A DNA stretch of 32,000 bases, from assembly GCA_025210155.1 (NCBI GenBank), contig JAOASE010000006.1, positions 79,678 to 111,677 on the forward strand. Direction: 5' to 3'. Made by a program: the position numbers and the translations under genes. How positions within the stretch are numbered: position 1 is the first letter of the stretch; every line of letters begins with the position of its first letter. The stretch comes from Alphaproteobacteria bacterium (GTDB taxonomy: Bacteria; Pseudomonadota; Alphaproteobacteria; Rs-D84; CASDRH01). Below are positions 26,697 to 31,064 of the stretch, in pieces. A model generated the notes under the pieces. It was not told the origin of the DNA. It saw only the letters and a program-made list of their open reading frames with translations, and made no database searches.

Positions 26697-26725
26697 TTGA
26701 CTTATTTAGCCTTTTATGATACAAT
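26697..26725 (+). promoter_or_regulatory. Sigma70-like promoter candidate for the T4SS operon
   Basis: TTGACT (26697-26702), a 17-nt spacer, then TACAAT (26720-26725). RBS GGAGGGA lies at 26743-26749 and the lipoprotein ATG at 26758. Confidence 0.45.
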
Positions 26726-26757
26726 TTTTTTAATATAACGATGGAGGGATATTCAAA

Positions 26758-26910
26758 ATGAATAAATTTATGATACTTACAGTTCTTATGCTTACTGCTC
26801 TTTCAGGATGTGGAACTATATATGAGCCAGATCCGGTTGGCACAGGCTATGACATAAACGAACTTAAATTATCTCCTTGTGCTTGCATGCAAGTAATGAA
26901 CCTTGCATAA
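26758..26910 (+). CDS. 50-aa lipoprotein, VirB7-like by size, lipobox and position
   Basis: Absent from the ORF track because it is under 60 aa. ATG at 26758, TAA at 26908-26910. The sequence is MNKFMILTVLMLTALSGCGTIYEPDPVGTGYDINELKLSPCACMQVMNLA. The lipobox is LSGC. A strong RBS lies 8 nt upstream. It sits immediately upstream of the VirB8-like and VirB9-like genes. Confidence 0.5.
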   Translation: MNKFMILTVLMLTALSGCGTIYEPDPVGTGYDINELKLSPCACMQVMNLA

Positions 26911-26930
26911 GTCCTTTTAAAGGAATAAAC

Positions 26931-27836
26931 ATGGGCAATAAAAAGGATAATATCAAAAAAGATAAATATCAAGAAACCCCTATATATCCAACAGAATTTC
27001 ACACGAGAACCTTTCCTCAAAGAGTTTATATTTGGATTATAGAGAGGTTTGTTTCTATTGCCTGCATACTTGTTCTTTTGTCTGCAATTCAAGCTATTTA
27101 TATATTTGCCAAAATCAGCACAGTTGAAAAGTCTAACATATATTTTGTATATTGGGATGAATATGAAAATAGATTTAAAGAAAAAGAATTTATTGATGAA
27201 TTCCATAAAAACGAAGTGAAAATACCTATATATCAAATAACCGCTCAAGAAACTTTAGAAAAGGCTGTTGTTGATAGATATCAAATATCATCCAATGAAA
27301 TAAATAATGAAAAAAAATGGTGCGGGTGTGAAAAAGAAATATTAGATAGAAAAAAAGCAGCTATATTTACTGATGACTGTTTTATATGTAGACATTCATC
27401 AAATAATGAATGGACAATATTCTCGAATGGCATTCTTCAGGAAAACTTAGAAATATTTAACTCTGGAAAAACTAGAAAAGTTGTTTTATTAGAAACAAAT
27501 ATTCTGAATAGTTATGATGCGTATCTTAGACCTAAAGAAACATTTTTTAATAAAATTGCTACGGAGGCTATGAATTTCTTTAATGTTACCAAAAAGAAAG
27601 AAGAATTTCTTGCTCAATATATTATGGAAGTCAAATTTGCATTGATACAATATGATAAAAATGGGAAAAAAGAATGGGCGGAGATATTATCCTCAATAGC
27701 CCAGATAACTTCTAGAAGTAAGGATTATGGAGACAGAGTTTATGGATTCGTAATAGATGAGCTAGATACTAATTTTGTACCTCAAAAAGAGATGTACTTT
27801 AAAAAATATTTAGAGGAGTTAAGAAATTATGAATAA
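26931..27836 (+). CDS. Bitopic inner-membrane protein, VirB8/DotI-fold-like paralog 1 (most divergent)
   Basis: 301 aa from the ATG at 26931, with RBS AAAGGAA upstream; the track start at 26877 overlaps the lipoprotein gene. It has a short basic N-terminus and the TM segment 'VYIWIIERFVSIACILVLLSAIQAIYIFA'. The periplasmic domain has an alpha1-like helix 'QETLEKAVVDRYQISSNE'. A CGC...CFIC four-Cys cluster is present. The C-terminal 'RVYGFVIDEL' parallels the NPLGF motif of paralog 3. Confidence 0.45.
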   Translation: MGNKKDNIKKDKYQETPIYPTEFHTRTFPQRVYIWIIERFVSIACILVLLSAIQAIYIFAKISTVEKSNIYFVYWDEYENRFKEKEFIDEFHKNEVKIPIYQITAQETLEKAVVDRYQISSNEINNEKKWCGCEKEILDRKKAAIFTDDCFICRHSSNNEWTIFSNGILQENLEIFNSGKTRKVVLLETNILNSYDAYLRPKETFFNKIATEAMNFFNVTKKKEEFLAQYIMEVKFALIQYDKNGKKEWAEILSSIAQITSRSKDYGDRVYGFVIDELDTNFVPQKEMYFKKYLEELRNYE

Positions 27837-28656
27837 AGCTCCTGAATTTAAATTGATATCTTTCATTGTTGTTATAGTAGCCCTTATAATGATGCTGTTG
27901 AATTCTGTATTGACTATATTTATTTTTGATATGACAAAAGGGTTTCAAACTGGTGACTTAAAAAGCCTATCAATAACTGGATTAAAAACCAAGGAAGCAA
28001 TAATACCTAAAGAAATTGAAATATATTCATCTTCTGAAAATATGTTCAATGCCATACCTATGTCCAACAACATATCTCAAGAGAAGAAAACTCAATTTAT
28101 CCAAAAGCTTATAAAACAATATCTTATAACTAGATATACAATAAATGGAAATCAATTCTTAATGAATAAGAACATGGGGGAGATGCATCTCAAGCATAAA
28201 AAAGGATGTCCTAGAAAACTTGTCAGTCCTATTTATATGTGGAGCATGACATTTTCTGATGCTGGAGAAAGAAAATATCCTTCCGTTTTAGGTAGCGGAG
28301 CTAAAGATGATGCATCTCAAGCCTGGATAGAATTTCTTGAAAAAGAAGTTCCAGACATAAAATCTAAAATGAATGCTGGAATAACTAGATCTGTTGAAAT
28401 ACTTCAAGTTCCATATAAAGACGGAGATTGGTGGAAAACAAAAATTAGATTGATATATAGAAATGATATAGAATTTACTAGAGAAGTTTACGAAGATTTC
28501 AATATATCTATGGAAGTTATTTTTGCACCAAAAGATAAGAAATTACTAAAAAAAGAACACTATCCATTTAGGCTAGCAAACCTTGCGGAAAGCTTTGGAG
28601 ATCCTTATATTATGTTTGGATTTCATGTAATACAACTAGTTAAAGAAAAAGAATAA
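27829..28656 (+). CDS. Bitopic inner-membrane protein, VirB8/DotI-fold-like paralog 2
   Basis: 275 aa. Its start overlaps the upstream stop by 8 nt (ATGAATAA). The TM segment is 'LISFIVVIVALIMMLLNSVLTIFIF'. The alpha1-like helix is 'TQFIQKLIKQYLITRYTINGN'. The beta region reads 'ITRSVEILQVPYKDGDWWKTKIRLIYRN'. The C-terminal motif is 'GDPYIMFGFHVIQL'. Confidence 0.5.
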   Translation: MNKAPEFKLISFIVVIVALIMMLLNSVLTIFIFDMTKGFQTGDLKSLSITGLKTKEAIIPKEIEIYSSSENMFNAIPMSNNISQEKKTQFIQKLIKQYLITRYTINGNQFLMNKNMGEMHLKHKKGCPRKLVSPIYMWSMTFSDAGERKYPSVLGSGAKDDASQAWIEFLEKEVPDIKSKMNAGITRSVEILQVPYKDGDWWKTKIRLIYRNDIEFTREVYEDFNISMEVIFAPKDKKLLKKEHYPFRLANLAESFGDPYIMFGFHVIQLVKEKE

Positions 28657-28688
28657 GTTTTACAAGGTTTTAAATAGGGGTAAAATTC

Positions 28689-28717
28689 TTGTAAAAAATC
28701 TCATTTTCTGTTATAAT
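28689..28717 (+). promoter_or_regulatory. Possible internal sigma70-like promoter upstream of VirB8-like paralog 3
   Basis: TTGTAA (28689-28694), a 17-nt spacer, then TATAAT (28712-28717), in the 81-nt gap before the ATG at 28738. The AT-rich background makes this weak evidence. Confidence 0.3.
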
Positions 28718-28737
28718 TGTTTTTGGTAGGGAAAAAC

Positions 28738-29472
28738 ATGAGCGAGAATAAAGTTAAAATAAAAAATACAAAGACTATGTCTGAGGAAAAAAAATTCTTT
28801 TGGATTTCAAAAGTTCTTTTTCTATTTACAGCCATAGCTGCCATTTCAAATATAATTTTATTCTTTGTCGCAACAAACTTAGTTCCAAATATTAAAGTTC
28901 AACCATTCTTTATTGAGAGTAAAAATTTAGCTGAAAAAGATATTTTAGTATACAAAGATTATAGAAAAGACCTATCTAGAAGAAATGTTAAGAATGAACA
29001 AGAATTCTATAAAATAAAACCAAATTCAGCGTCATTTAAAATTGCAGAAAACAATATCAAAAAATATATCATAGATAGAGAAACAATTGTAAGAGATACT
29101 GAGTCTATGTTTAATAACTGGGGAAATGAAAGTGATGTATTTTATTTTTCTTCAGAAGAAATATATAAAAAGTTTTCTGAGACTAAAACCTTTAGATCTG
29201 TAATTGAACAACAAAGAGATCTTGGCTGGAATAAGATTGTTGAAATAAAAGAGCTTAAATTTCATTCTAGAGCAAATGAATGGATAGCTGATGTTATATT
29301 TAGATATATTCAACCAAATGGAATGCCTTTCAAAACTCTTGAGAAAAGGATAGTTCTTGAAGTTGGTTTCAACCTTAACGAATTAAAAAGAAATAAAGAC
29401 AACATGTATAAAAATCCTTTAGGATTTACTGTTGAAAAATACTTTTATACTTCAGTTAACAAGGCACCATAG
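28738..29472 (+). CDS. virB8: VirB8-family (TrbF/DotI-fold) T4SS inner-membrane protein, paralog 3
   Basis: 244 aa from the ATG at 28738, with RBS AGGGA upstream; the track start at 28717 is a TTG. It has a cytoplasmic N-terminus and the TM segment 'FFWISKVLFLFTAIAAISNIILFFVA'. The alpha1-like helix is 'KIAENNIKKYIIDRETIVRD'. The beta region reads 'NKIVEIKELKFHSRANEWIADVIFRY'. The C-terminal 'KNPLGFTVEKYFY' matches the VirB8 'NP.G..V..Y' motif as I recall it. It lies directly upstream of the virB9-like gene. Confidence 0.65.
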   Translation: MSENKVKIKNTKTMSEEKKFFWISKVLFLFTAIAAISNIILFFVATNLVPNIKVQPFFIESKNLAEKDILVYKDYRKDLSRRNVKNEQEFYKIKPNSASFKIAENNIKKYIIDRETIVRDTESMFNNWGNESDVFYFSSEEIYKKFSETKTFRSVIEQQRDLGWNKIVEIKELKFHSRANEWIADVIFRYIQPNGMPFKTLEKRIVLEVGFNLNELKRNKDNMYKNPLGFTVEKYFYTSVNKAP

Positions 29473-29489
29473 TTGTTGCTAAAAAAGTC

Positions 29490-29519
29490 TTGTTTAGAAC
29501 ACCTATTTTGTAGTATAAT
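29490..29519 (+). promoter_or_regulatory. Possible internal sigma70-like promoter upstream of the VirB9-like gene
   Basis: TTGTTT (29490-29495), an 18-nt spacer, then TATAAT (29514-29519). RBS AAGGAAGGA precedes the ATG at 29544. Confidence 0.3.
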
Positions 29520-29543
29520 AGTTTTAAAAGGAAGGAAATTAAA

Positions 29544-31064
29544 ATGAAAAAGATCTTTTTATTTTTAGGAGCTTTAAATCTTTGCTTATTTTCTGGAAAT
29601 AGCAAATCTTTTGCTGAGGGAGAATATACAAATTCTGGATTTGGTACTCAAACTGCATGGAGCAACCCAGAACAAAATATTGGTGAAGGACAAATTAAAC
29701 CTGGATATGCCAGAATAGATTGGGAACCAGGAAAAGTTATGCCTGTTAGATTGAGAGATGGTATGATAACTCTTATAAATCTACCTACTTGGGAAAAGAT
29801 TGAAGATGCATATATTGGAGATAAGGACTTCTTCGATGGTAGAGCTGTGGAAAAAAATACCTTCATGATATCTCCTGTTGATGGAAGATCAGTGGCTGAT
29901 ACAAATATGGTTCTATTTGGTAAATCTGGTAATAAATATGTCTTCTATCTTAAATCAGAACCAATTAATACTGGAACTATAACTAATTCTGAAATCGAGA
30001 TTATAGTTCCTAATTCTTACAAAGGTAAAAAATCCGTTATTGGAGGAGCTTCTTCTAGTGCTGGTAAATCAAATTTAACTTCTCTATTTGCTAAATCAGC
30101 ATCTGGATCTGCCGGTGATGAAGCTTGGGAAGGTGAAGATTTTGGTTGGATTAAAAATATACCTGTTGACCCATCTCAATTTAGATTCGATATGGATATA
30201 TTTGTTCCAAATCCTGATGATTATGTAATCGCACCTGAAAGAGTTTGGAGAGATAAAATCTTTACTTACATTGATTTTGGTGAAAAAGCTTTACACATGA
30301 ACCAAAGACCAGCTGTTTCAATACTTGTTGAAGGTGGTGAAGCGCCTGTTGGATTTAGAACTGAAGGACCTCTTTCTAGATTAATAGTTGTTGAAGCTAT
30401 TGGTGACTTTGTTCTTAGATCTGGTCAAAGAATTGTATGTATTAAGAAAAGATCTAAGCCGTTCTTAGCTTCTGCTCCAACAATAAATAGTAACTTTACT
30501 CTACCTCAATCAGTAAAGAACTTAGCTAATGGTAATTATACAAATATTCAAACACAATCTGCTGTTTCGCAAGAAGTTAACAATGGACAAGCTGGCTTTG
30601 GGTTCTTCAATCCAAATTCAATGCCTGCCATAAATAATGTGACCTCTCAACAAAGCAATTTCCAAACATCTTCTAGTTATACTCAAGTAAACTATGATGA
30701 AGAGTACAGAAGAAATGATGCAAGAACAAATGGATCTTATCTGCCAGATCATTACGTTCCTTTAGTTGAGCAAAAGACTGTTTCTTACGCTGTTGAAATT
30801 AAAAAAGGCGATTCAATAAAAGAATTAGAAAAATCTTGGGAAGCAATGTCTGCTGGAAAAGGAAATATGCTTTCTAGATACCAAGATAGAGTTTTCTATT
30901 CTCTTGAAGACGAAGGCGTTGATGAGTTAGGTTCTAATCTATACCATGGAAATGAAGTTTATAGATTAAGAATTGGACCATTTGAAGAAATTGATGAACC
31001 AGATGAACTTTGTAAAAAACTTTCTGGATTTAGAATTAATTGTAAAGTTGTTAGAATTCAATAA
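29544..31064 (+). CDS. virB9: VirB9/TrbG/CagX-family T4SS outer-membrane core protein fused to a Q/N/S-rich linker and a C-terminal SPOR domain
   Basis: 506 aa. Signal 'FLFLGALNLCLFSGNSKSFA/EG'. The VirB9 N-domain pattern is 'GKVMPVRLRDGMITLINLPTWEKIEDAYIGDKDFFDGRAVEKNTFMISPVDGRSVADTNMVLFGKSGNKYVFYLKSE'. The VirB9 C-domain pattern is 'APERVWRDKIFTYIDFGEKALHMNQRPAVSILVEGGEAPVGFRTEGPLSRLIVVEAIGDFVLRSGQRIVCIKKR'. The low-complexity linker spans about aa 304-412. The SPOR-like end is 'YAVEIKKGDSIKELEKSWEAMS...EVYRLRIGPFEEIDEPDELCKKLSGFRINCKVVRIQ'. Confidence 0.8.
   Translation: MKKIFLFLGALNLCLFSGNSKSFAEGEYTNSGFGTQTAWSNPEQNIGEGQIKPGYARIDWEPGKVMPVRLRDGMITLINLPTWEKIEDAYIGDKDFFDGRAVEKNTFMISPVDGRSVADTNMVLFGKSGNKYVFYLKSEPINTGTITNSEIEIIVPNSYKGKKSVIGGASSSAGKSNLTSLFAKSASGSAGDEAWEGEDFGWIKNIPVDPSQFRFDMDIFVPNPDDYVIAPERVWRDKIFTYIDFGEKALHMNQRPAVSILVEGGEAPVGFRTEGPLSRLIVVEAIGDFVLRSGQRIVCIKKRSKPFLASAPTINSNFTLPQSVKNLANGNYTNIQTQSAVSQEVNNGQAGFGFFNPNSMPAINNVTSQQSNFQTSSSYTQVNYDEEYRRNDARTNGSYLPDHYVPLVEQKTVSYAVEIKKGDSIKELEKSWEAMSAGKGNMLSRYQDRVFYSLEDEGVDELGSNLYHGNEVYRLRIGPFEEIDEPDELCKKLSGFRINCKVVRIQ

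Follow-up and report, generated by a model that had tools for sequence, protein, structure and literature searches.

Genes at the locus

The window analysed here is a stretch of 32,000 nucleotides (nt) from contig JAOASE010000006.1 of an alphaproteobacterium, with a G+C content of approximately 31%. Near its end lie three consecutive open reading frames (ORFs), here called P1, P2 and P3, which encode proteins of 301, 275 and 244 amino acids (aa) and which a sequence-only reading had described as a tandem triplication of VirB8-fold proteins. VirB8 is a scaffold protein and a central assembly factor of type IV secretion systems (T4SSs). The three ORFs are present as described, on the same strand, in the following order of genes:

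26758-26910, plus strand: lipoprotein gene of 50 codons (50 aa) with lipobox LSG/C and a C-terminal SPCAC; first gene of a lipoprotein-P1-P2 unit, in the VirB7 position.
26931-27836, plus strand: P1, VirB8-family paralog of 301 aa with a long cytoplasmic tail, one transmembrane (TM) helix and a four-Cys periplasmic insert, without NPXG.
27829-28656, plus strand: P2, VirB8-family paralog of 275 aa with nearly no cytoplasmic tail, one TM helix and a genus-specific insert, without NPXG.
28738-29472, plus strand: P3, canonical VirB8 of 244 aa with NPLGF; Pfam PF04335.
29544-31064, plus strand: VirB9, an outer-membrane core subunit, with a C-terminal SPOR domain (Pfam CagX E 8e-19, SPOR E 9e-4).
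31082-32000, plus strand: N-terminal part of a VirB10 homolog whose gene continues beyond the window end.

The P1 and P2 genes overlap by 8 nt, gaps of 81 nt and 71 nt separate P2 from P3 and P3 from VirB9, and the starts at 26931 (P1) and 28738 (P3) have plausible ribosome-binding sites. The TrbI domain of VirB10 (E 3e-25) lies just past the window, within the same 626-aa open frame.

As had been proposed, each of the three proteins has one TM helix, seen as a single hydrophobic stretch by the Kyte-Doolittle scale (residues 31-65 in P1, 3-37 in P2 and 19-52 in P3), and the AlphaFold models of P1 and P2 have a single long N-terminal helix at this stretch. All three share the bitopic topology of VirB8. 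The short cytoplasmic N-terminus assigned to every copy is, however, essentially missing from P2, where only about 2-7 residues are cytoplasmic; the P2 family has a median of 2 residues ahead of the TM helix, compared with 33 in the P1 family, which carries a conserved YP..FPE(R/K)KY motif, and 11 in the P3 family, which carries an E..RYLW..R motif.

Two further motifs had been reported as common to the copies. The amphipathic-helix motif bears this out, as the three quoted examples were mutually aligned in profile-profile comparison. The C-terminal Gly-Phe strand holds for P1, which aligned to the NPLGF of P3, and the TM-less comparison of P2 reaches that region. NPLG itself is limited to the third copy, in agreement with the reading, and N226, P227 and G229 are invariant across 24 P3 orthologs. 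This NPXG motif, which stands before the last strand at the major dimer interface, is replaced by ..VYG. in P1 and ..MFG. in P2, and neither family has it. P2 also contains an insert of approximately 35 residues (residues ~123-160; window 28195-28310), placed between helices of the VirB8 fold and modelled with a predicted local distance difference test score (pLDDT) below 50. The insert is limited to the window's genus, and P2 in the other genera is without it.

Three diverged members of the VirB8 family

The strong divergence noted for the three copies was evident from pairwise BLASTP, where no match was significant (E 0.18-0.5), so that the common layout is visible only at the level of profiles and structure. 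P3 passes the Pfam PF04335 cut-off of 23.2 bits with a score of 25.7 (E 1.2e-5). For P1 and P2, neither Pfam nor NCBIfam gave a match, and a P1 ortholog from genus g6 scores 20.2 bits with PF04335, under that cut-off. Single-sequence searches of a 5.8-billion protein set with P1 and P2 returned only the proteins themselves and one sister-species relative each. Diverged orthologs were found by searching 150 genomes of the same order, and family alignments for P1 (A1), P2 (A2) and P3 (A3) were built from the fetched loci. Database relatives of P2 are labelled 'hypothetical protein', one of them from Candidatus Enterousia scatequi.

Profile alignment, which had been suggested as a check, showed that all three proteins are mutually related and that P3 is a canonical VirB8. 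Using hhalign, the probability was 97.7% for P1-P3 (E 1.6e-12), 98.5% for P2-P3 (E 1.8e-15) and 97.4% for P1-P2 (E 1.4e-11). With the TM segment removed the values were 96.6, 97.6 and 96.8%, respectively, against at most 0.3% in column-reversed controls. A search of 1.84 billion representatives with the P1 profile retrieved its own family first (61 matches at E <=1e-30), and 29 of 38 proteins sampled from the later matches were Pfam-positive VirB8 (library-wide E 1e-8 to 1e-23). The P2 profile matched P1 and P3 orthologs in relatives at per-genome E values of 1e-6 to 1e-11 (1e-7 to 1e-11 for the P3 orthologs). Against sequences from the PDB, the P3 profile found the solved VirB8, TrwG and TraE chains at E 1e-10 to 1e-5, and the P1 and P2 profiles gave chance-level matches only, such as complex I B18 and APPL1.

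Predicted structures point the same way. The AlphaFold2 models of P1 (80-sequence alignment; pLDDT 82, predicted template modelling score (pTM) 0.66) and P2 (42 sequences; pLDDT 74, pTM 0.62) both have a TM helix followed by helices packed against a four-stranded antiparallel sheet. In Foldseek searches of the PDB, the best 37 matches of the P2 model were all of the VirB8 family, and the best matches of the P1 model were R388 TrwG, RvhB8-II, an IcmL-like protein, TraM, Bartonella VirB8 and DotI. Both models lie nearer to VirB8 structures than to other NTF2-like proteins. The VirB8-fold claim of the sequence-only reading would have failed if P1 and P2 had a different fold and were unrelated to P3; what was found is a VirB8-like predicted fold and a clear profile relationship. 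P1, P2 and P3 are anciently and strongly diverged members of the VirB8 family.

The Cys cluster in the first copy is real, and is not special to the window's copy but a hallmark of the whole P1 family. Its spacing had been given as CGC-x20-CFIC and is in fact CGC-x16-CFIC, the four periplasmic Cys being C131, C133, C150 and C153. N126, W130, C133 and C150 are invariant in the 22 sequences of A1 and at least 90% conserved in an 80-sequence alignment (A6). Among these 80 family members, 68 have four periplasmic Cys, seven have six, four have two and one has five, so the number is even in 79 of them, while the spacing varies (C-x-C...C-xx-C, C-x4-6-C...C-x3-C and others). Paired disulfides would give just such an even number at shifting positions, which a fixed tetra-Cys metal site would not readily explain. 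Where the reading had offered metal or disulfides, we therefore favour disulfides and reject the tetra-Cys metal site as less likely, given that the Cys number changes between two, four and six and the spacing changes with it. The genome encodes a DsbA-like thioredoxin-fold protein; DsbB had no match in this genome, which is 97% complete.

The lipoprotein upstream of P1 belongs to a family with the motif DPVGxGYDxxELKxSPCAC, members of which stand immediately before P1 at 17 of the 21 loci in the order and also in genome G003. The same family was found on an unrelated metagenome contig, where it precedes a Pfam-positive P1-type VirB8 and then another bitopic gene. The lipoprotein is 98% identical to that of the sister species, in which P1 is 76% identical. 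Across the order it associates with P1-P2 and not with VirB9. It has no family match in Pfam or NCBIfam. A P[ILV]NK motif is typical of VirB7, and the lipoprotein is without it. That its C-x-C might pair with Cys of P1 is speculation.

The extreme divergence of P1 and P2, and their lack of any Pfam match, would fit degenerating, redundant VirB8 duplicates with no function of their own. Rates of evolution do not. The ratio of nonsynonymous to synonymous substitutions (dN/dS), computed against the sister species at a dS near saturation, was 0.16 for P1 and approximately 0.03 for P2, comparable to rpsA (0.08) and rplY (0.21); the lipoprotein gave 0.01. P1 and P2 are under purifying selection, and the low dN/dS marks them as working genes and not decaying duplicates. 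Both also have intact single-copy orthologs in all six families of the order, family-specific invariant residues and, in P1, a conserved Cys pattern. Degeneration is effectively refuted by this conservation.

Two gene units across the order

In the window, P1, P2 and P3 are encoded together with VirB9 and VirB10; elsewhere in the order, most families have P1 and P2 away from these genes. P2 comes after P1 at each of the 21 loci. VirB9 is directly preceded by an ORF in every one of 20 sampled genomes, and this ORF was taken as the P3 ortholog (16 by BLASTP; the other four, all of genus g6, by position and alignment). The order thus has two units, lipoprotein-P1-P2 and P3-VirB9, which usually stand apart. 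In families f2, f4 (genus g6) and f5, the first unit lies near BamA, LptF/LptD or peptidase M3, with VirB9 12-20 kb off or on other contigs; in f2 its neighbours are LptF, LptD and a peptidase, with VirB9 12-20 kb away, and in g6 it follows BamA. Only two lineages have the units joined: the window's own family, represented by three genera, and a single genus of f4 (G118). All three genera of the former keep the three paralogs side by side, although in two of them opposite-strand genes or approximately 7.5 kb come between P3 and VirB9.

Copy numbers are uniformly low. One VirB4 match was found in 149 and one VirB9 match in 150 of 151 sampled genomes of the order, and the P2 family has one strong copy in 56 of 61 genomes. 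The window's own genome has exactly one each of P1, P2, P3, VirB4, VirB9, VirB10 and VirD4, and its VirD4, its VirB4 and the VirB8-VirB10 cluster lie tens of kb apart on the same contig. TrbL/VirB6 had no Pfam match in this genome; its VirB6 may be too diverged for Pfam.

The three genes are not a local tandem triplication, since the paralogs are older than the order and their two units are separate loci in most relatives. A recent local triplication was rejected on the same grounds and in view of the tree described below. A class-wide search gave weaker matches in nine other alphaproteobacterial genomes, and at five of the six loci inspected outside the order a long VirB9 is preceded by a tandem pair of VirB8 genes, both Pfam-positive. 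Together with the metagenome contig described above, this shows multiple VirB8 genes to be a trait of this T4SS subtype that predates the order. The maximum-likelihood tree recovered P1, P2 and P3 as one clade each, joined P2 with P3 (support 99/96) and placed P1 beside Pfam-positive VirB8 from other genomes. A grouping of P1 with P2 (p 0.20), of P1 with P3 (p 0.08) or of all three paralogs (p 0.12) was not rejected by approximately unbiased (AU) tests. The phylogeny proposed for dating the duplications therefore separates the three clades and does not fix the order in which they arose.

The loci outside the order (L086-L091) show a recurring T4SS layout, in which the VirB8 pair is followed by a VirB9 of 480-600 aa resembling the SPOR-bearing one. 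Giant proteins (1000-2500 aa) then occupy the VirB10 position, and beta-flower and RHS repeats occur in one of them.

Probable placement in one secretion system

We consider it probable, at roughly 0.7, that P1, P2 and P3 all belong to one and the same T4SS, the only chromosomal P-type system in the reduced genome of this alphaproteobacterium. That they serve one T4SS is indicated by their homology, the single-copy T4SS genes, purifying selection and conservation in six families. The same placement is suggested by the paralogs staying adjacent in the window's family although VirB9 has been displaced in two genera, and by the tandem VirB8 pairs upstream of VirB9 in five of six other alphaproteobacterial loci. 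P3 is the conservative copy, which has kept both the NPXG motif for dimerisation and its place next to VirB9. P1 and P2 form a fixed unit with the near-invariant lipoprotein and have diverged past Pfam recognition, the Cys insert in the periplasmic domain of P1 probably being stabilised by disulfides and the cytoplasmic tail of P2 having been lost.

Four observations weigh against all three acting together in one system. In most relatives no T4SS gene neighbours the lipoprotein-P1-P2 unit. In genus g4, two genomes that are 94-96% complete, G002 and G024, carry VirB4 and VirB9, yet profile searches detected neither P1 nor P2 in them; either the assemblies have a gap there or the genes were lost. 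The AlphaFold models behind the fold assignment are of moderate confidence (pLDDT 74 and 82). Finally, the Rickettsiales rvh T4SS has two VirB8 paralogs, RvhB8-I and RvhB8-II; those of Rickettsia each homodimerise but gave no heterodimer in two-hybrid assays (PMC4676284), so VirB8 paralogs need not co-assemble.

The first two of these could also be read to mean that lipoprotein-P1-P2 is a VirB8-derived envelope module outside the T4SS, for example a tether between the inner and outer membranes or an accessory of envelope biogenesis, and that the adjacency of this unit to virB8-virB9 in the window's family is a historical leftover. The position of the unit beside BamA, LptF/LptD and peptidase M3 in f2, f4 (g6) and f5 is in keeping with such a module, as are the retention of VirB4 and VirB9 in G002 and G024 without a detectable unit and the loss of NPXG from P1 and P2. 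Against this, T4SS genes are scattered in the order anyway, by tens of kb in the window's own genome. The joined arrangement moreover occurs in two distant families, tandem VirB8 genes lie near VirB9 outside the order, and, the T4SS being universal in the order, no genome has the unit without a T4SS. We regard an envelope module of this kind as unlikely.

If P1, P2 and P3 do belong to one T4SS, the R388 system offers a model for how they might be arranged. In the R388 T4SS each of six protomers has three VirB8 subunits, whose N-terminal tails come together as a three-helix bundle on the outer VirB4, with tail A refolded and tail C barely in contact, and whose periplasmic domains form an asymmetric homotrimer with differing A-B and B-C interfaces that builds the 'arches' (PMC9259494). 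There, one gene product (TrwG/VirB8; PDB 7O41, 7Q1V, 8RTA, 8RTD; Mace et al. 2022, PMC9259494) fills three positions, whereas the genome studied here has three genes. Because R388 has three non-equivalent VirB8 positions and the tails of the paralog families differ systematically (33, 2 and 11 residues for P1, P2 and P3), the three genes may share out these positions, and the hetero-oligomer suggested by the sequence-only reading is plausible. Co-occurrence and translational coupling support it indirectly, as do the differing tails. In the mechanism that we regard as the most likely, a hetero-oligomer of P1, P2 and P3 would build the VirB8 layer, with its TM tails on VirB4 and its periplasmic arches round the stalk, each paralog being specialised for one of the three positions per protomer; P1, coupled to the lipoprotein and braced by disulfides, might reach across towards the outer-membrane core.

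A stricter version, in which an obligate 1:1:1 heterotrimer of P1, P2 and P3 replaces the VirB8 homotrimer, seems doubtful to us. The long-tailed P1 and the short-tailed P3 would contact VirB4, and the tail-less P2 would take the position with hardly any contact to it. A link, possibly a disulfide, would join the lipoprotein to the Cys insert of P1 and tie the arches of the inner membrane to the outer-membrane core.

A further reading, modelled on what was proposed for RvhB8-I and RvhB8-II, keeps all three proteins in the T4SS but as separate homo-oligomers, each assembled at another place or another time, with no mixed heterotrimer. RvhB8-I is canonical with NPXG, and RvhB8-II (PDB 4O3V) is divergent without it (Gillespie et al. 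2015, PMC4676284). The behaviour of the Rickettsia paralogs in two-hybrid assays favours separate homo-oligomers, as does the absence from P1 and P2 of the NPXG that P3 keeps for the canonical interface, and so does the specific coupling of P1 to the lipoprotein. A pure oligomer of the tail-less P2, however, could not make VirB4 contacts of the R388 type (PMC9259494). P1 and P2 are also translationally coupled and strictly co-present or co-absent in the genomes searched with both profiles, G003 included. We take separate homo-oligomers seriously but regard them as rather unlikely.

Several VirB8 paralogs in one system are not wholly new, given the precedent of RvhB8-I and RvhB8-II (PMC4676284), where the divergent copy was described as confined to Rickettsiales. 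The rvh system differs from the one described here in having two VirB8 paralogs and not three, and in its duplicated VirB4 and VirB9, which are single-copy here. It also differs in the Cys-rich insert of P1, the mini-lipoprotein coupled to P1 and the VirB9 with SPOR, which belong to the present system. The P1 and P2 profiles found no match to RvhB8-II (4O3V) at E values up to 10, and the likeness is structural only. With canonical VirB8/TraE/CagV (PF04335; PDB 2BHM, 2CC3, 4KZ1, 5I97, 6IQT) the fold, the topology and the place before VirB9 are the same. P3 resembles these proteins further in being a Pfam member and keeping NPXG, whereas P1 and P2 are under Pfam detection, without NPXG and mostly unlinked from virB9.

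DotJ is not known to have a periplasmic domain, whereas P1, P2 and P3 all have one. The likeness to DotI/DotJ (IcmL/IcmM) of the Legionella type IVB system (PDB 3WZ4; IcmL-like 5CNL) is by fold only, and type IVB genes are not present here.

In R388, one VirB8 product must take three environments per protomer. Three long-diverged VirB8 genes with differing tails in one machine would be a natural dissection of VirB8 roles, and such a three-gene system would make the role of each VirB8 position directly testable. A 1:1:1 heterotrimer, if true, would be a case of natural subfunctionalisation of quasi-equivalent subunits in a secretion machine. Two families widespread in reduced-genome Alphaproteobacteria, probably order Rs-D84 with Candidatus Enterousia among its members, can now be labelled VirB8-like T4SS components in place of 'hypothetical protein'; a paper on Enterousia and Rs-D84 genomes makes no mention of secretion systems (PMC12306168). 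The window gives the unit of a lipoprotein and two VirB8 proteins a physical link to virB8-virB9-virB10.

Two minor observations concern the DNA of the region. The gap between P2 and P3 (28657-28737) contains two promoter-like sites, one of them TTGTAA-17-TATAAT with an upstream TG, which fits a seam between two formerly separate transcription units; scans of the region for promoters and terminators gave site counts not above shuffled expectation. Public sequencing runs at full word share with positions 26700-31000 of the window were coral metagenomes and one seawater run, with no gut samples, and the window's family may therefore be marine or coral-associated, unlike its gut-derived Enterousia relatives.

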